From a virus (Duplodnaviria; Caudoviricetes): a DNA stretch of 64,000 nt. Shown in pieces: positions 36,059 through 63,782 of the stretch. Numbering within the stretch: the stretch's first letter is position 1; each line of letters opens with the position of its first letter. Below the pieces are notes generated by a model. The model had not been told where the DNA came from. It saw nothing but the letters and a program-made list of their open reading frames with translations, and did no database searches. The position numbers and the translations under genes are program-made. The DNA lies in the IMG/VR virus record IMGVR_UViG_3300042566_001028, positions 1 to 64,000 of that record; one strand, given 5' to 3'.

Positions 36059-36092
36059 AGGGTGGAACATATCGTCTCCACCCTTTATTTTT
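36059..36092 (+). terminator. intrinsic terminator
   Basis: AGGGTGGA/TCCACCCT stem followed by TTATTTTT. Confidence 0.7.
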
Positions 36093-36112
36093 TAACAAAA
36101 AACAAAACAAAC

Positions 36113-39100
36113 ATGAAAAAAACGATTCTATCGTTGTTCCTTTCAGTATCAGTTTTAATGGGATTCGGTCAAGTTACCACATCCTCTATTTCTGGTGTAG
36201 TTAAGAACGAAAAACAAGAAGTGTTGGTAGGTGCTACAATACATGTAGTTCACACTCCAACAGGTACAAGTTACAAAACCGTAACAAATAAGAATGGTGT
36301 TTATGCATTACCTGCTGTAAGAGTGGGTGGCCCATATACATTACATGCTTCATTTGTCGGATTTAGAAAAGGTGAAGAAACGGATGTAAACACTCAATTG
36401 GGTGTAACTACAAACGTGAACTTTACATTAGTGGATGAGAAGACTGCTCTTAAAGAAGTAGTTGTGACTGGAACAAAATCTGGATTATTCTCAAAAGAAA
36501 AGACAGGTGCAGCACAACAATTTACTCGTAGAGAATTACAAACTATTCCAATTACAGGAGCAAGAACAATCAATGGTATTACTAAATACAATCCATTCGG
36601 TGATGGTTCTTCATTTGGAGCACAAGATTCTCGTTTAAACAACTTCACAATTGATGGTTCTCAATTTAATAACAACTTCGGGTTAGGTTCATCTGCACAA
36701 GCGGGTGGTAGAACTGGTGCAAGTGCTATTTCATTGGATGCGATTGACCAATTACAGGTGAATGTTGCCCCATTTGATATCCGTCAGTCTGGGTTTACTG
36801 GTGCTGGTATCAATGCAGTAACAAGAAGTGGTACAAATGAAGTGGAAGGTAGTGTTTATCAAACACAAAGAGATAATAGTTCTCGTTATGTTGGTGATAA
36901 TGCTAAAGGAACAAAAGTAACTGCATCTAAATTTGATGAGAAGGTACAAGGTTTCCGTTTAGGGGCACCAATTATTAAGAACAAATTATTTATCTTTGGT
37001 AACTACGAATCAATTGAAAGAACTGAGCCAGGTACAACTTGGATTTCAACAGGTTCTCCATTGGCAGGTTCACAAGTAAGTAGACCAACTTTCCAACAAT
37101 TGACTGACCTTTCTAAATTTATGAAAGATAAGTTCAATTATGAAACAGGTCCATTTGAAGGTTATTCTAACACAAACACATCTAACAAATTTTTAGTTCG
37201 TGTTGATTGGAATATTAACGATAAGAACAAATTAACTGCTCGTTATGTGTTCCATAATTCTGAAGCACAAATCGGAATTTCAAATTCAAATTCGGCGGGT
37301 GCGGGAAGTAGAACACAAAACATCAACGCAATGTCTTTCCAAAATAGTGGATATACTATTCAGGATAATACTCGTTCAGCAGTATTGGAATTAAACTCTA
37401 AGATTTCAAATACATTATACAATAACTTAATTGTATCGTATGACAAACAAATTGAGAACAGAGGTTATATGAGCCAAATGTTCCCAACGATTGATATCTT
37501 ACAATCTACCCCAACTCTTACATCAGTAGGATTTGACCCATTCACTCCGGGTAACAAATTAGATTACAATACTTTTAATGTAACTAACAACTTAACAAAA
37601 TATGCAGGTAAGCATACTTTGGTTGGTGGTTTTAACTTCCAAAAGTATCAATCAAATAACTTATTTTTCCCCGCATCTAATGGTGTTTACATCTTTAATA
37701 GTTTAAATGATTTCTACACTGCAGCTAATCAATCATTAGCAAATGGTGGAAGACCATCTACATTTGCACCTGCAAGATTTCAATTCCGTTACTCGGCATT
37801 ACCAGGAGCAATTGAACCAATGCAAACTTTAAAATCAGATAGATTAGATTTATACTTACAAGATGAATATAACGCAACTAGAGATTTGAAATTAACATTT
37901 GGTGCAAGAGTAAACATCATTGGTTTTGAAAATACGGCATTAGAAAACAAAGCAGTAACTGCAATGACTTTTGCAAATGGTGAAAAATTAAATACAGGTC
38001 TAATGCCTAAAACACAAGTTCTTTTTGAACCAAGATTAGGTTTCAACTACGACTTGAAAGGACAAAAGAAAACACAATTTAGAGGTGGTACTGGTGTATT
38101 CACAGGTAGACCTCCTTATGTATTCTTATCTAACCAAATCGGTAACAATGGTGTGTTGACAGGATTTATTGATGTGACAGGAGCAGCGGCAGCCCAATAT
38201 GGTTTCACTGCCGACCCTAACAAATATTTCATCCCATCAACTCCACAATTGCCTTCAACATTTGACTTAGCATTAACTGACCCTAACTACAAATTCCCAC
38301 AAGTTTGGAAAACAAATTTGGCAGTAGACCAAAAGTTACCATTCTTCGGATTAGTAGCAAGTGCTGAATATCTTTATAATAAAACACTTAACGCAGTTCA
38401 TTACTACGAAGCTAATTTAAGAGCACCTGTTGGAACTTTGGGTGGCGTAGATAACAGACCTCGTTTCGGTGGTACGGATGCAACTGTGAGAGTAAATAAC
38501 AATGTAAGTAGAGCAATAGTTCTTACAAATAGAGATGGTGCATATCACGAATCATTGACATTGAAATTAGAGAAACCATATCAAAAAGGTTTCTGGGGTT
38601 CATTCGCTTGGACAACTGCTAACTCAAAAGACTTTATGAGTGCGGGTTCAATCGCTAGTGGTAGTTGGCAATCAGCTTTATCAGTAGCAGGTAACAACGA
38701 TTTAGGATTATCGTTTGCCGACCAATTTGTTAAAAACAGATTCGTAGGTTTATTAGGATATAGAATTGAATATGGTTCTAAATATGGTGGAGCTACTACA
38801 TTTACATTAGGTTATGTAGGACAACAAGGTAATCCATATTCTTATGTTGTAACAAGTAGTTCAACTGCAGATTTCAATGGAGATAGAGTATATAATAACG
38901 ATTTAATTTTCGTTCCAATGAAAGGTTCGGATATGAAATTTACTAGTTTTACTTCAGGTGGTAAAACATTTACTGAAGCAGAACAACAAGCTGCATTTGA
39001 TAAGTTTATCGGACAAGATAAATACTTATCAACTCGTAGAGGTCAATATGCTGAAAGAAATGGTGGTTTATTACCTTACTTACATAGATTTGATTTATCG

Positions 39101-39403
39101 GTAGCACAAGATGTATTTGTTAAAATTGGTGGAAAGAGAAATGCTTTCCAAATCAGAGCAGATATCTTAAACTTCGGTAATATGATTGACAATAAGTTTG
39201 GTGTTTCACAAAGAGCTACGGCACCTCAAATTTTGAACTTTGTAAGCAGAGATGCAGTTACAAATGTTCCAACATTTAGATTGGCAACACAAAGATTAAC
39301 AGATGGTTCTACTATTTTAGCTAGAGATAGTTATCAGTACAACTCATCAGTATTTGATGTATGGTCTGCACAATTAGGTATCCGTTACATCTTCGGTAAA
39401 TAA
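36113..39403 (+). CDS. TonB-dependent outer membrane receptor (Oar-like)
   Basis: Signal peptide MKKTILSLFL..FGQ, carboxypeptidase-regulatory-like N-domain, EVVVTG, GFTGAGINAVTRSGTN plug, C-terminal QLGIRYIF; start reassigned to ATG 36113. Confidence 0.9.
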   Translation: MKKTILSLFLSVSVLMGFGQVTTSSISGVVKNEKQEVLVGATIHVVHTPTGTSYKTVTNKNGVYALPAVRVGGPYTLHASFVGFRKGEETDVNTQLGVTTNVNFTLVDEKTALKEVVVTGTKSGLFSKEKTGAAQQFTRRELQTIPITGARTINGITKYNPFGDGSSFGAQDSRLNNFTIDGSQFNNNFGLGSSAQAGGRTGASAISLDAIDQLQVNVAPFDIRQSGFTGAGINAVTRSGTNEVEGSVYQTQRDNSSRYVGDNAKGTKVTASKFDEKVQGFRLGAPIIKNKLFIFGNYESIERTEPGTTWISTGSPLAGSQVSRPTFQQLTDLSKFMKDKFNYETGPFEGYSNTNTSNKFLVRVDWNINDKNKLTARYVFHNSEAQIGISNSNSAGAGSRTQNINAMSFQNSGYTIQDNTRSAVLELNSKISNTLYNNLIVSYDKQIENRGYMSQMFPTIDILQSTPTLTSVGFDPFTPGNKLDYNTFNVTNNLTKYAGKHTLVGGFNFQKYQSNNLFFPASNGVYIFNSLNDFYTAANQSLANGGRPSTFAPARFQFRYSALPGAIEPMQTLKSDRLDLYLQDEYNATRDLKLTFGARVNIIGFENTALENKAVTAMTFANGEKLNTGLMPKTQVLFEPRLGFNYDLKGQKKTQFRGGTGVFTGRPPYVFLSNQIGNNGVLTGFIDVTGAAAAQYGFTADPNKYFIPSTPQLPSTFDLALTDPNYKFPQVWKTNLAVDQKLPFFGLVASAEYLYNKTLNAVHYYEANLRAPVGTLGGVDNRPRFGGTDATVRVNNNVSRAIVLTNRDGAYHESLTLKLEKPYQKGFWGSFAWTTANSKDFMSAGSIASGSWQSALSVAGNNDLGLSFADQFVKNRFVGLLGYRIEYGSKYGGATTFTLGYVGQQGNPYSYVVTSSSTADFNGDRVYNNDLIFVPMKGSDMKFTSFTSGGKTFTEAEQQAAFDKFIGQDKYLSTRRGQYAERNGGLLPYLHRFDLSVAQDVFVKIGGKRNAFQIRADILNFGNMIDNKFGVSQRATAPQILNFVSRDAVTNVPTFRLATQRLTDGSTILARDSYQYNSSVFDVWSAQLGIRYIFGK

Positions 39404-59091: not shown

Positions 59092-59745
59092 ATGAGTTAT
59101 TTAGTAGCAAACATCCCACCAATAGAAGTTTATGTAGATAAAAGATTTCTATATGATTTTCAAAAAGATGAGATGGGTAATTATTTGGGTGATGGTGAAT
59201 GGGAAAGAGGTCATTGGGTTAGTGTAAAATCAATTCCAAATCGTGCACTATTATTTGAAACTTATATTGACAAGTTTGGTGCAGTATATGACAAATTACC
59301 TATACATGCATTCCGTTGGAGACCATTAGAAACGACAGATAAGGTGTTTCCTTTGGATTTCTTACAACTTTGGGATTGTTTATCATATAACATATCAGTC
59401 ATTGAAAAAAGGGTATTAAGGGGTGTTAAAACCTATACTACAATGAAAGACCATTCAGTAGTAGAGGGTGATTATCTTTTTACAATTGATACATCACATT
59501 CTGACCCAAATGAAATTGATTGTGGGTGGAGTGAAACACCAAATGAACATAAATGTTATAATGTGTCTAAATTGGAAAATGGCCAACTATGTGCACAACC
59601 AAATAATAGGACTAGATTTTATCAACCTAGTAGAACTAATGGTGTTTCTTTAATACCTTATTTTAGATATTCTACAAAAGTGTGGAAATGTGAGGATTTT
59701 GGAAAGTGGAGACCATCCGATACAAATTGGGATTACACAGAATAG
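59092..59745 (+). CDS. conserved phage hypothetical protein
   Basis: MSYLVANIPP, LPIHAF, LQLWDC, EHK, AQPNNR. Confidence 0.65.
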   Translation: MSYLVANIPPIEVYVDKRFLYDFQKDEMGNYLGDGEWERGHWVSVKSIPNRALLFETYIDKFGAVYDKLPIHAFRWRPLETTDKVFPLDFLQLWDCLSYNISVIEKRVLRGVKTYTTMKDHSVVEGDYLFTIDTSHSDPNEIDCGWSETPNEHKCYNVSKLENGQLCAQPNNRTRFYQPSRTNGVSLIPYFRYSTKVWKCEDFGKWRPSDTNWDYTE

Positions 59746-60065: not shown

Positions 60066-60429
60066 GGGGATGCTTTGGAATTGATTGCTATGTAAATGGT
60101 AATATCACATGTAGACAAAGTAAGAATGTCTTTAAATACTTACAAAACAATAACTGACGAAAAGTCAACTATGACTTACAACGACTTAATGGCGTTTGTA
60201 GGTATGGATTACGCTGTAGCAGCCTAACCAATCCCGCACACATCGTGGGACTTTAAATAGAATGTGAAATTGAGTGGAAACTAACTGAACTCAAAATCGA
60301 GTTAGAATATTGATTATAATGAAATAATAAAACTTATATATTTGTCAGTTGTGAATAACTGAATAAACATGTGAGATGCTGATATTATTGATTTCTAGTA
60401 AGACACGAGTTCGACTCTCGTCATCTCCA
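60066..60429 (+). ncRNA. ssrA: tmRNA
   Basis: GGGGATG/CATCTCC-A acceptor with the G3:U Ala determinant; T-arm ACGAG-TTCGACT-CTCGT; tag frame 60156-60227 ending YAVAA*. Confidence 0.92.
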
Positions 60430-60489
60430 CAAATTTATTTAAGTATGGTAATCCTACTAACACAACTAGCGGACTTAAATAAAAAAATA

Positions 60490-60530: not shown

Positions 60531-60602
60531 CGCAGGATAGAGCAGAGGTAGCTCACGTGGCTCATAACCACAAGGTCGGAGGTTCGAATCCTTCTCCTGC
60601 AA
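60531..60602 (+). tRNA. tRNA-Met(CAT), probable initiator
   Basis: Cloverleaf, CTCATAA loop, C1:A72 mismatch. Confidence 0.88.
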
Positions 60603-60710
60603 CAAATAAGATGATTGGTTGAAGCCATCAAATAATAAAACCGATTGAGTGACCTACCCAGTAGGGAAGAAAGCCGGACACCGATTATCTTAAAAGTTTT
60701 TTGAAATAAA

Positions 60711-60845
60711 TTTGGTAATGTTAAAAATGTTTCGTATATTACATAAGTAAATGAGAAACAATAGGTGATGAAAGATACTCGTTATTAAATTTACAAAAAA
60801 AGTTTTAAATAAATTTGGCAGAATAAAAAATTATTCGTATATTTA
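60711..60845 (+). promoter_or_regulatory. two tandem Bacteroidota-type promoters
   Basis: TTTGG 60711/TATATTAC 60735 and TTTGG 60814/TATATTTA 60838. Confidence 0.75.
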
Positions 60846-60849
60846 TTAA

Positions 60850-61760
60850 AACCGAAAGAAAGTTCTTTAAAAGATTGAAAATATTTTACATAGTGAGTTC
60901 GTCTCACATAGTAAACAACCGCCGCCTATGGTGGTTAAATAAACTACGAAAGTAGGATAAAGTGGATGTATTAAGTGATACATCTGCGGCTACTCTCCCC
61001 GTAAGGAGAGACTAGCTTGAGTAGGCAAGTGGGATATCATTCTCGCTAAAGTAGTTGAGGGTAACACTTTAGGCGAATAGTGGGAATGGTTGGGGTAGTA
61101 TAGATACTCCGACTGAGTTGGGAACAACAATAAGAATAACCCATAGAATATCAGTAAGAAGTGTAGACTTAATCCCTCTACATCATTGCGGTATTCAGTT
61201 TCAAAGTTATCTTAACATCAAGCCATCCGAAAGGACGCAAGATAAGATAGTGTACAAGTGGTGTTGTTACCATCCTTATATAGAGTTTGCCAAAACCTAT
61301 ATTTGAAGATGACTTAAAAAACCGCAGTAGGGATATTGCATCGGGTAGTTTAGTATTCTCTCGTTCAAAAGATGAGGGAGCTAGTGGTAAACCACTACCT
61401 GAATAATTCTATAAACTAAAACTCAATTTTGAATAGCATTTTCAAAAAATACAATTTAAAAATTAAGCTTAAGTGTTTACCAGTTGCAGATGAAAGGTGT
61501 GTACATAGTTAAGAGTTGTTCTTAGCCACGATACCTCCGCAAGAGGTCTGTGATTCTACCGAAAGGTTTCTAATTCCGCAAGAACTAATCAGGCTGCGAG
61601 GCTTGAAGAAAATGATTAAGTAGAGAGTAATCGGCAACTTAAAGACTGATAGTCTAAAATCATCCACATTGAATTGGTACTACTCAAAAGGTAGTGGAAA
61701 CGGAAGGAAACAAATAATCTTTCTAAAGCTGGTTCACCAAATAGAGTATTCTCATCTATT
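60850..61760 (+). ncRNA. large structured ncRNA, GOLLD-like
   Basis: ~900 nt, higher GC, no credible ORF, many GNRA-capped hairpins (CTAC-GAAA-GTAG, TCC-GAAA-GGA, ACC-GAAA-GGT, GCAA and GTAA loops), lies among tRNAs; family assignment inferred, boundaries approximate. Confidence 0.6.
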
Positions 61761-61765
61761 TATAA

Positions 61766-61837
61766 GCGGTTTTAGTGTAATAGTAGCACTCCTAGCATTC
61801 CAGTTAGGGAGAGGTGGGGCAGAACCATTTTACCGCT
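61766..61837 (+). tRNA. non-canonical tRNA-Gly-like RNA
   Basis: GCGGT/ACCGC acceptor with two mismatches, 8-nt loop CATTCCAG, T-loop GGCAGAA, no D-loop GG. Confidence 0.5.
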
Positions 61838-62166
61838 CAATACGAAGATTTTCGTGGTCTACCTTTTTGGCTGTTTCTTACTCAACAGTCGTTTCGTTTA
61901 AATTAGACCTAAAAGATAGAACGATATAATAAAATTGGAAGTAAGTGTTTTGGGGAGGATTTTGACACTAAAAATGCAATCAGAAACGATACACGATTGC
62001 CGGATTCGTAGTCGTACACTACAAGAGTTACCGCCTCCTATAAACTCTATTTTTGTGCAAAGTAATTTAATGAGGCTAGTATTAACCGGAGCATGACTTG
62101 ACGTGGCGTATTTTGAAATTGAATTACTTTTTAACATTAAACAAAAAAATTAGATATATATTAACA

Positions 62167-62256
62167 ATGAGAACTCTAACACATACACTTTGTAGTCAAC
62201 CGAATCAGATTTGGATTGGCAATTTCGTGCAGTTAGAGGATACGGATGTAGGATAA
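62167..62256 (+). CDS. putative leader peptide (29 aa)
   Basis: MRTLTHTLCSQPNQIWIGNFVQLEDTDVG*; contains attenuator segments 1 and 2. Confidence 0.5.
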   Translation: MRTLTHTLCSQPNQIWIGNFVQLEDTDVG

Positions 62257-62282
62257 AATGTAATAATTTTTGAATAATATTG

Positions 62283-62316
62283 AAAAACCTCTGACTAAAA
62301 AGTTAGGGGTTTTTTT
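62283..62316 (+). terminator. intrinsic terminator (putative attenuator) upstream of tRNA array
   Basis: AAAAACCTCTGACT-AAAA-AGTTAGGGGTTTTTTT; ends 5 nt before tRNA-Tyr. Confidence 0.75.
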
Positions 62317-62321
62317 GTTTT

Positions 62322-62403
62322 GGGAGTATCGCATAGTGGCAATTGCGGCTGACTGTAAATCAGCTCTCTTTCGAGTTCGGTGGTTCGAGTCCATCTACTC
62401 TCA
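62322..62403 (+). tRNA. tRNA-Tyr(GTA)
   Basis: GCTGA-CTGTAAA-TCAGC; long variable arm. Confidence 0.92.
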
Positions 62404-62409
62404 CAAAAT

Positions 62410-62483
62410 TCTCACTTAGCTCAGTTGGTTAGAGCGTCGCACTGTTAATGCGAAAGTCCTAAGTTCAAGTCTTAGAGTGAGAG
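62410..62483 (+). tRNA. tRNA-Asn(GTT)
   Basis: TCGCA-CTGTTAA-TGCGA. Confidence 0.92.
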
Positions 62484-62492
62484 CAAACAAAA

Positions 62493-62565
62493 GCGGATGT
62501 AGCTCAATTGGTAGAGTGCGTTCCTTCCAAGTACGAAGTTGCAGGTTCGAGCCCTGTCATCCGCT
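62493..62565 (+). tRNA. tRNA-Gly(TCC)
   Basis: CTTCCAA loop; GCGGATG/CATCCGC acceptor. Confidence 0.92.
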
Positions 62566-62645
62566 CAAACGGTTACCAATCCGGAACACGCCTGGAAGTT
62601 TAGTGTATTAGCACACCAGGAAATGGTGATAACAAAATTGGAAAT

Positions 62646-62716
62646 TGTTCGGTGGTGTAACGGTAGCACAATTGTTTTTGGTACAATTAGTTCTGGTTCG
62701 AATCCAGCCCGAATAA
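62646..62716 (+). tRNA. tRNA-Gln(TTG)
   Basis: ATTGT-TTTTGGT-ACAAT. Confidence 0.9.
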
Positions 62717-62721
62717 CATAT

Positions 62722-62790
62722 GCGTGGTAGGCTATGGCAGCCAATTGGTCTCCAAAACCAAAGGAGAGGGTTCAATTCCTTCACTGCGTG
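62722..62790 (+). tRNA. tRNA-Trp(CCA)
   Basis: TTGGT-CTCCAAA-ACCAA; short D-arm. Confidence 0.8.
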
Positions 62791-62795
62791 CAATT

Positions 62796-62868
62796 AGTTC
62801 TATGGTGTAATTGGATAGCACGAAACACTACGGATGTTTTAGTTTGGGTTCGATTCCTAATAGGACTA
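62796..62868 (+). tRNA. tRNA-Arg(ACG)
   Basis: AAACA-CTACGGA-TGTTT. Confidence 0.9.
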
Positions 62869-62874
62869 CAATAT

Positions 62875-62944
62875 GGTCAGTTTGGTCGTGGAGGCCGGTG
62901 GGACTGCAAATCTTACGGAGTTGGTTCGATTCCAACATTGACCT
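62875..62944 (+). tRNA. tRNA-Cys(GCA)
   Basis: CTGCAAA loop; U73. Confidence 0.82.
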
Positions 62945-62949
62945 CAAAT

Positions 62950-63024
62950 GGTGTTTGAAGCATTAAGGTGATGCGTCGGTTTGTGGAGCCGGATAAGACG
63001 GGTCGGTACCGTCCTTACACCCCA
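62950..63024 (+). tRNA. tRNA-His(GTG)
   Basis: G-1:C73, TTGTGGA loop, encoded CCA; atypical T-loop GTCGGTA. Confidence 0.75.
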
Positions 63025-63026
63025 AC

Positions 63027-63100
63027 ACCCGTATGGCGGAATTGGCATACGCAGTGGTCTTAGAAGCCATAAGTTACAGGTTCGACTCCTGTTACGGGTA
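63027..63100 (+). tRNA. tRNA-Leu(TAG), short variable loop
   Basis: GTGGT-CTTAGAA-GCCAT; Leu-type D-arm. Confidence 0.85.
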
Positions 63101-63106
63101 CAAATG

Positions 63107-63138
63107 TTTGGTAAAGTAAATTATTATTCGTATATTTA
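63107..63138 (+). promoter_or_regulatory. Bacteroidota-type promoter
   Basis: TTTGG 63107 and TATATTTA 63131. Confidence 0.75.
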
Positions 63139-63270
63139 ATTTATAAGGTTGATTGGGAACAAAAGTAGCCCGCTAAAACGAGTTAGTGAAAATCTAATAC
63201 GCTACTACCGGTTAGTAAAGCCAATCATAAAAGTAATCGTCCACGCACCCATCTTTTACTTTCCTTAAAT

Positions 63271-63575: not shown

Positions 63576-63581
63576 CAATAT

Positions 63582-63688
63582 GCCGGAGTGGCGGAATGAT
63601 AGTATGTACAACTATTAGACGTTCCCTTCCTAGGTGGGTGGTGTATCCGAAATGGACATCGTGTGAGTAACCAATCTCTCCTCCGGCA
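63582..63688 (+). ncRNA. tRNA-Leu-like RNA with D-loop hairpin insertion
   Basis: Perfect GCCGGAG/CTCCGGC-A acceptor, Leu-type TGGCGGAA...AGACG, extra hairpin, poorly paired anticodon arm, non-canonical T-loop. Confidence 0.55.
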
Positions 63689-63782
63689 CCTTATGGGCTT
63701 TGGTGATACAGCCATAAAGAGAGACAGATGTTTCTCATTCACTAAAATAGGTAGGTGACTCCACACCTGCTTATTTTCTTTC

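Follow-up and report, generated by a model that had tools for sequence, protein, structure and literature searches.

Large freshwater phages of one family carry a candidate ribosome-mediated attenuator ahead of a tRNA gene block

We analyzed a 64,000-nucleotide (nt) stretch of viral DNA, referred to here as the window, which comprises the first 64 kb of the 78,280-base IMG/VR virus record IMGVR_UViG_3300042566_001028 (completeness 36% per CheckV). From 59.8 kb onward, the window carries an island of RNA genes that holds a transfer-messenger RNA (tmRNA), a tRNA-Met, a GOLLD RNA, and two blocks of transfer RNA (tRNA) genes. Between the GOLLD RNA and the first tRNA block lie a structured element that we call element E, a short leader open reading frame (ORF), and an intrinsic terminator. 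A first-pass annotation had proposed that the ORF and the terminator form a leader-peptide attenuator of the trp/his type, in which four segments pair in mutually exclusive ways: segment 1 with segment 2 (1:2), segment 2 with segment 3 as an antiterminator (2:3), or segment 3 with segment 4 as the terminator (3:4). We located the ORF, all four segments, and the terminator hairpin exactly where that annotation had placed them (Table 1).

Table 1. Positions of the leader, its pairing segments, and the neighboring RNA features in the window
Feature	Position	Strand	Remarks
tmRNA	60066-60430		Rfam 75.8 bits; ARAGORN tag peptide DEKSTMTYNDLMAFVGMDYAVAA
Promoter-like motif TTTGGnA-N16-GTATATT, two copies	60711-60740 and 60814-60843	+	last copies before the tRNA block
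GOLLD RNA	60868-61758	+	conserved 3' half 61341-61758; 5' half placed via homology to relatives
Degenerate tRNA-Gly(tcc) copy	61769-61850	+	aligns to the ARAGORN-called tRNA-Gly of loci L004 (12766-12837) and L032 (5902-5975)
Element E	62060-62134	+	stem 62060-62071:62118-62129 around a 46-nt nearly invariant core, then a T-run
Leader ORF, 29 codons	62167-62256	+	ATG at 62167, TAA at 62254-62256; sequence MRTLTHTLCSQPNQIWIGNFVQLEDTDVG; spans the entire 1:2 hairpin
Segment 1, CTCTAAC	62174-62180	+	codons 3-5; 5' strand of the anti-antiterminator helix
Segment 2, AGTTAGAGG	62231-62239	+	pairs with segment 1 or segment 3
Intrinsic terminator	62282-62321	+	stem widened by A-U pairs to 62282-62315; T-tract up to the tRNA
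Segment 3, CCTCTGACT	62288-62296	+	5' arm of the terminator
Segment 4, AGTTAGGGG	62301-62309	+	3' arm of the terminator
First tRNA block	62322-63101	+	Tyr, Asn, Gly, 79-nt insert, Gln, Trp, Arg(acg), Cys, His-like stretch, Leu(tag)
Next promoter-like motif, heading the second tRNA block	63107-63136	+	motif scan and relatives

In the window, the sequence offers 7 Watson-Crick pairs for 1:2, 9 pairs (one of them G-U) for 2:3, and 9 pairs (two of them G-U) for 3:4. Segment 1 starts 7 nt after the ATG, and the leader ORF is also nested within a TTG-started ORF at 62098-62256. The widened terminator stem was the top-scoring site in a terminator scan, with 15 pairs, a loop of 4, and a T-run; the scan found 7 terminator-like sites in 4.5 kb versus 2.9 ± 1.6 in shuffles. 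When folded, the region 62157-62321 formed the 1:2 hairpin followed by the terminator (z = -3.40), and 1 of 200 shuffles was as stable. When the upstream sequence was shuffled 1000 times, 0.2% of the shuffles contained a partner for segment 3 as good as segment 2, and 4.7% contained an equally good 1:2 complement. Only 5 nt separate the end of the T-run (62316) from the start of tRNA-Tyr (62322), leaving no room for a promoter between them. The annotation had claimed the lack of a promoter at this point, and no promoter of the phage type stands there in relatives, where the first tRNA begins 5-9 nt after the T-run in 28 of 30 loci with the same layout. We also looked for a promoter in the longer interval between the stop codon and the tRNA, and none fits.

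We collected related loci (designated by L numbers) in two ways. The neighboring protein gene (59092-59745) yielded 80 loci, 7 of which reach the island, and all 7 share one order: tmRNA, tRNA-Met, promoter motif, GOLLD, tRNA-Gly or its remnant, element E, small ORF, terminator, and tRNAs. A DNA pattern derived from element E added 31 further viral loci and 80 of 111 metagenome matches, and the synteny of GOLLD, E, ORF, terminator, and tRNAs was also found in all loci retrieved through E. The 31 and 80 loci, plus the window and L011, gave a total of 113. Automatic parsing succeeded for 106 of these and gave 73 distinct leader sequences, while 4 loci end at a contig edge. Because many loci represent the same contig in two collections, we counted distinct sequences (73 leaders, 56 3' parts, and 64 copies of E). 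Homologous leaders, for which the annotation had recommended a search, precede the tRNA arrays in 108 of the 109 loci that extend far enough, namely the 106 parsed loci plus L122 and L124, whose ORF and terminator were recognized by inspection. The exception, L125, is a natural deletion variant. It lacks the leader ORF and retains a single tRNA of the first block, its element E runs straight into a terminator-like hairpin, and the next promoter motif follows. Our table of segments covers 67 of the 73 leaders and leaves out L105, L128, L139, L152, L170, and L189; the terminators of L105, L139, L152, L170, and L189 are bulged, and the 2:3 pairing is retained in them by eye.

Across these leaders, segment 2 follows segment 3 through about ten versions of the stem, such as GTTAGAGG with CCTCTAAC, GTTAAGGG with CCCTTAAC, GTCAGGG with CCCTGAC, and TGTTAGG with CCCTAACA. 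The complement to segment 3 was better than that of at least 95% of shuffles in all 67 leaders (shuffle p ≤ 0.05). In a MAFFT alignment of the 56 distinct 3' parts, 92.7% of the 450 cells of the 2:3 helix were paired, and 5 of its 9 pairs had changed on both sides (30 cells). None of 500 shuffles attained the paired share or the covariation score, and slid registers reached at most 61%. In a first set of 20 sequences, 94.4% of the cells had been paired and two-sided changes had affected 5 of 9 pairs, again unmatched in 500 shuffles. For the 3:4 terminator, 97.0% of the cells were paired in the same 56-sequence alignment and 4 of 9 pairs had changed on both sides, with the same picture in the first 20-sequence set. 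The 2:3 helix covaries as strongly as the 3:4 terminator. The covariation test that the annotation had proposed for all three helices thus came out in favor of 2:3 and 3:4, whereas 1:2 lacks column-wise covariation.

The changes in segment 2 also indicate what is being conserved. In L094 and L091, a codon change from Glu to Arg in segment 2 preserves the pairing with an altered segment 3, and the 22-codon forms retain segment 2 although it falls outside their ORF. Both observations point to RNA pairing, rather than coding, as the constraint. They bear directly on the possibility that the ORF is an ordinary small phage gene and that the hairpin is either its leaky terminator or the place where the GOLLD/E transcript ends, with the tRNAs made through constitutive readthrough and with 2:3 serving RNA stability or processing instead of regulated termination. 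Phage terminators are often leaky, a canonical terminator hairpin with a T-run stands at the end of the ORF, and the terminal motif LEDTDVG recurs in many variants, all of which would suit such a gene. However, 2:3 covaries like the terminator even across this charge-reversing codon change, segment 2 persists where it is no longer coding, the ORF varies among leaders in its length (22-53 codons), through internal deletions, and at its C-terminus, and its peptide bears no sign of purifying selection. We regard this explanation as distinctly unlikely.

The reading frame is open throughout. The ATG is invariant across the leader variants, and the 73 distinct leaders have lengths of 22, 26, 28, 29, 30, 31, 38, 39, 40, 43, 51, 52, or 53 codons. 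Among 23 distinct variants, frame 1 contains no stop in 756 codons, against 84 of 733 in frame 2 and 63 of 733 in frame 3, and shuffled ORF bodies would remain open with a probability of 0.010-0.21 per variant; the conservation of the ORF, which the annotation had named as a check, thus held. Segment 2 is read in the same phase among the long ORF forms. A Shine-Dalgarno-like motif stands before only 4 of 45 long ORFs in the window, where start regions are A-rich, and because the motif is rare throughout the phage, its absence before the leader ORF is no objection to translation. We ruled out a conserved small protein, as variable sites show no excess at the third codon position and synonymous differences are few. 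The counts of variable sites at codon positions 1/2/3 were 24/22/30 in the long forms, 8/12/9 in the forms of 29-30 codons, and 11/10/8 in the 22-codon forms; the long forms differ by 104 synonymous versus 257 nonsynonymous codon differences (104/361), and the synonymous share is roughly a fifth to a third in all three length classes. A frame that is apparently kept open without selection on its product has the look of a regulatory leader ORF.

The residues that do recur in the peptide (Leu4, His-Thr, Pro, Trp, and Met) are coded by nucleotides that pair mutually within the leader hairpin, ACAUAC with GUAUGU and CCN with UGG. This suits another explanation, in which the switch would be set not by a translating ribosome but by a factor that binds the 1:2 hairpin or element E in trans, be it an RNA-binding protein of phage or host, a small RNA, or a tRNA, and the open frame would be secondary or serve another purpose. 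The whole leader folds as a single long structured hairpin (z from -0.7 to -6.1 in 15 variants) whose conserved nucleotides are the paired ones, it has no regulatory codon runs, and the highly conserved and structured element E lies 26-90 nt upstream of its ATG. A switch set by a factor alone would, however, leave unexplained an open frame of up to 53 codons in AT-rich sequence at 108 of 109 loci, the invariant ATG, and a stop codon fixed relative to segment 2. Moreover, no T-box or other known riboregulator was matched in Rfam, the distance between E and the leader is variable, and L011 has a leader without E. We consider a trans-acting switch unlikely.

The position of the stop codon follows a simple pattern. 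It lies 12-17 nt after segment 2 in 52 of the 67 leaders, with five intervening codons that vary in sequence and not in number; in 13 leaders it stands immediately before segment 2, and in the remaining 2 it falls within it. The distance from the stop codon to segment 3 is 26-51 nt. By a footprint argument, this placement would let a terminating ribosome block segment 2.

We then examined the predicted folds of the leaders, which are equilibrium minimum-energy structures and do not represent kinetics. In single-sequence folds, 1:2 closed the structure in all 15 representative variants and likewise in all 67 leaders. The full transcript folded as 1:2 plus 3:4 in 64 of 67 leaders, and a transcript ending at segment 3 folded as 2:3 in 51 of 67. 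When the first 33 nt were masked, as they would be by an early ribosome, all 67 leaders folded as 2:3. The masked folds also suit a form of positive coupling in which any translation of the leader would open 1:2 and give readthrough, with tRNAs made only while ribosomes are active and with speed not measured; segment 1 lies so near the ATG that an initiating ribosome would mask it. Such coupling needs no particular placement of the stop codon, though, and the fixed position of the stop next to segment 2 suggests that a ribosome reaching the end matters. We therefore judge this form of coupling very unlikely.

Based on these sequence comparisons, we propose that positions 62167-62321 probably form a ribosome-mediated transcription attenuator that gates the first phage tRNA block, and we put the probability of this reading at roughly 60%. 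RNA polymerase would reach the leader from upstream by extending the GOLLD/E transcript, with a possible further contribution from a weak start shortly ahead of the ATG. If the leader is free of ribosomes, segment 2 would be sequestered in the long hairpin that 1:2 closes, the 3:4 hairpin would form, and the polymerase would stop 5 nt before tRNA-Tyr. A ribosome in the early part of the ORF would open the hairpin and free segment 2. If this ribosome were still short of segment 2 and the stop codon when segment 3 emerges, 2:3 would pre-empt the terminator and the tRNAs would be transcribed, with the leader later cut from the tRNA precursor by ribonuclease P. In contrast, a ribosome that had arrived at the stop codon would cover or flank segment 2, and 3:4 would form. 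The trp/his logic invoked by the annotation is thus matched by the ORF, the 2:3 and 3:4 helices, and the placement of the stop codon; what is missing from it is the tandem regulatory codons.

Several observations weigh against this interpretation. As the annotation had already noticed in the window, the leader lacks the codon run for a single amino acid that typifies amino-acid attenuators, and this proved true of every peptide variant. Most of the conserved peptide residues fall within RNA helices, and RNA structure by itself accounts for much of the sequence conservation. The 1:2 helix is a further difficulty: RNAalifold on MAFFT alignments from the ATG to segment 2 found no consensus 1:2 helix, a control in which nt 4-30 were shuffled gave p ≤ 0.05 in just 17 of 67 leaders, and in an ungapped search for 1:2 the p-value was about 0.6 for the common 22-codon forms (9 of 25 sequences) and 0.2 for L084. 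The register of 1:2 shifts between length classes, which causes column-wise tests to fail. Among the folds, the full transcript preferred 2:3 in 3 of 67 leaders, and the transcript ending at segment 3 still preferred 1:2 in 16 of 67, mostly 22-codon forms. Because the sequences are related, the shuffle counts overstate independence, and the distinct stem types number about ten. Finally, we looked for a promoter feeding the leader and identified none.

The lack of a single-codon run also affects what the attenuator would sense. Without such a run, the leader would report the general speed or lag of ribosomes and not the supply of one amino acid. The annotation had instead emphasized a varied set of ORF codons cognate to the tRNAs that follow. 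This claim is not supported, as 8 of 20 leader codons match compared with a background of 21.9%, which is not significant (P = 0.052, post hoc), and the codons concerned are structurally constrained, the conserved His, Thr, Pro, Trp, and Met codons being those that pair within the hairpin. We tentatively suggest, as a possibility that we ourselves hold to be doubtful, that the leader acts as a tRNA-supply homeostat: ribosomes would be timed on a neutral test ORF, and lagging elongation would lead to readthrough into 4-25 phage tRNA genes. The lag could come from depletion of host tRNAs, from cleavage by anticodon nucleases, or from a codon usage unfit for the host pool.

The arrangement of promoter-like motifs bears on how the leader and the tRNAs could be transcribed. 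The motif TTTGGnA-N16-GTATATT occurs 9 times in the window versus 0.05 expected, with copies starting at 1377, 11315, 44943, 59786, 60490, 60711, 60814, 63107, and 63865, and 6 of the 9 head RNA genes of the island. A scan of the window for this motif found no copy between 60843 and 63107. In relatives, 4-25 tRNAs precede the next promoter motif. We also considered a promoter between E and the ATG. Most variants have an A/T-rich, TATAT-like box a few nt before the ATG, and this box is a doubtful candidate, with inconsistent -35 spacing. Lying so near the ATG, the box would also imply a leaderless start. The interval between E and the ATG is just 26-27 nt in leaders of the L084/L140 type.

RNA libraries were available as assembled contigs, which carry no RNA ends or strand and whose depths cannot rank the parts of the locus; no run contained half or more of the sampled words of the stretch. 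Contigs from 4 of 4 libraries cover GOLLD, from bin 60868 on. The bin 61792-61875 had no cover and the values over the leader and tRNAs were low, and neither observation entered our argument. In two runs, contigs join element E to the ORF, and a single contig extends past the terminator into the tRNA block; this is weak evidence for the attenuator, as these contigs may be DNA.

Regarding the tRNA block itself, the annotation had counted nine tRNAs. Eight were called by both ARAGORN and Rfam, whereas the ninth, a His-like stretch at 62946-63026, was called by neither in the window; it aligns to the ARAGORN-called tRNA-His(gtg) of the relative L003. The 79-nt insert between tRNA-Gly and tRNA-Gln (62567-62645) is not a tRNA and contains two small hairpin-like repeats, and it recurs in relatives such as L090, L098, and L112. 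Farther along the tRNA arrays, the region 63577-63782 shows tRNA-like acceptor ends with long internal inserts and was not called by ARAGORN or Rfam.

The anatomy of the leader can be compared with that of known attenuators. In E. coli trpL, the stop codon directly abuts segment 2, and the stop codon of the 22-codon phage variants does so too. More generally, the phage leader resembles the leader-peptide attenuators of the E. coli amino-acid operons (trpL, hisL, pheL, and thrL), in the general scheme given by PMC1183508, in having a short upstream ORF, mutually exclusive helices (a predicted 1:2, the 2:3 antiterminator, and the 3:4 terminator), a stop codon by segment 2, and regulated genes after the terminator with no promoter between. 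Unlike these attenuators, it has no codon run for a single amino acid, its ORF spans the whole 1:2 hairpin and does not end in segment 1, it is up to 53 codons long, it is carried by phages, and its output would be tRNA genes and not biosynthetic enzymes. In the absence of amino-acid-specific runs it is closer to the Bacillus subtilis bmrCD leader and the mef/mel leader, ribosome-mediated attenuators that sense general translation inhibition (PMC4191407; PMC4335068), with the position of the ribosome picking terminator or antiterminator. Those two leaders are triggered by antibiotics that act on the ribosome, and they turn on bacterial genes for efflux or protection, whereas the output of the phage leader would be tRNAs. 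T-box riboswitches, which bind uncharged tRNA via a specifier loop and the T-box sequence and control synthetase or amino-acid genes, likewise tie transcription attenuation to tRNA status. They have no ORF, however, whereas the phage leader has one and would control tRNA genes, and an Rfam search of 60600-62330 at E ≤ 5 gave no T-box match.

The leader stands downstream of both GOLLD and element E, a context that was absent from the first-pass annotation. GOLLD was recognized by its match to RF02032 (280.8 bits versus a gathering score of 150, model positions 1-416), which defines the conserved 3' half, and both halves are conserved in 7 relatives. GOLLD RNAs adjoining phage tRNA islands are already in print (PMC5737381; bioRxiv 10.1101/2024.12.08.627333). 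As in the GOLLD passages of these two papers, the GOLLD of the window is downstream of a tRNA-Met and upstream of tRNAs, and a tRNA or tRNA remnant lies directly 3' of it. Those passages do not mention a leader ORF, an attenuator, or an element E, which here stand between GOLLD and the tRNA array, the attenuator as a candidate. The degenerate tRNA-Gly(tcc) copy of the window received no ARAGORN call. In L003, L007, and L014, the tRNA-Gly copy after GOLLD contains an insert of about 24 nt in the D-loop region.

Element E is known in 64 distinct copies. Its closing stem is an 11-bp helix that covaries, and 7 of its 20 predicted pairs have changed on both sides. Of 61 distinct spacers, 55 have a run of at least four T after the stem. 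L011 is the only locus in which the leader is present without E; elsewhere, E always accompanies the leader. In the Rfam search described above, element E was unmatched, with GOLLD and chance-level matches as the only results, and this gave no support for E as a hammerhead or another known ribozyme or riboswitch. Its exact pattern had zero copies in 185,579 bacterial and archaeal species genomes. Element E is thus a candidate for a new structured RNA. It could belong to the GOLLD transcript as a 3' domain or terminator, lie within the leader's 5' untranslated region, or act as a second sensor, and it may add a second input to the attenuator.

Next, we considered the phage and its host. The window codes for a family-B DNA polymerase (PolB), a chaperonin, and further genes typical of a large T4-like phage. 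Through PolB, the closest isolate is Microcystis phage Mel-JY01 (48.8% amino-acid identity), in which no GOLLD match was found and which is therefore unsuitable as a model. The annotation had named Flavobacterium as the host for reporter experiments; this host could not be established, the nearest PolB isolate being the Microcystis phage. A protein of 1113 amino acids (36062-39403) with CarboxypepD_reg and outer-membrane beta-barrel domains resembles a SusC-type TonB-dependent receptor, an unusual cargo for a phage and possibly a hint at a Bacteroidota host. The phage tmRNA that heads the RNA island is kept in relatives with an identical or nearly identical tag. A blastn search with 60600-63200 against 50,697 phage records gave tRNA-sized matches only, covering at most 6% of the query, which indicates that no isolate among these records carries the leader.

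Control of phage tRNA genes is, to our knowledge, hardly known. Our full-text literature searching, at the level of titles and abstracts, turned up no leader-ORF attenuator described upstream of tRNA genes, which does not prove absence. While the class of mechanism is classical, its novelty lies in the tRNA genes as output, in the phage as carrier, and in having no specific regulatory codons. Phage tRNAs have been discussed as a counter to tRNA-cleaving host defenses (PMC10264068; PMC11555353; PMC11464382). If our interpretation is correct, the output of phage tRNAs would be tied to the state of translation, in a model that is testable by mutation, and ribosome-mediated attenuation, whose known outputs are enzymes and resistance genes, would be seen to control parts of the translation machinery as well. 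If the homeostat model is also true, these would be the first tRNA genes under translation-coupled attenuation, within an island that also holds a phage tmRNA, GOLLD, and element E. GOLLD, itself an abundant phage RNA of unknown function, shares its transcription context at this locus with a candidate translation-sensing switch. The conserved design of the leader suggests that, in this family of large freshwater phages, tRNA supply may be adjusted to the performance of translation.

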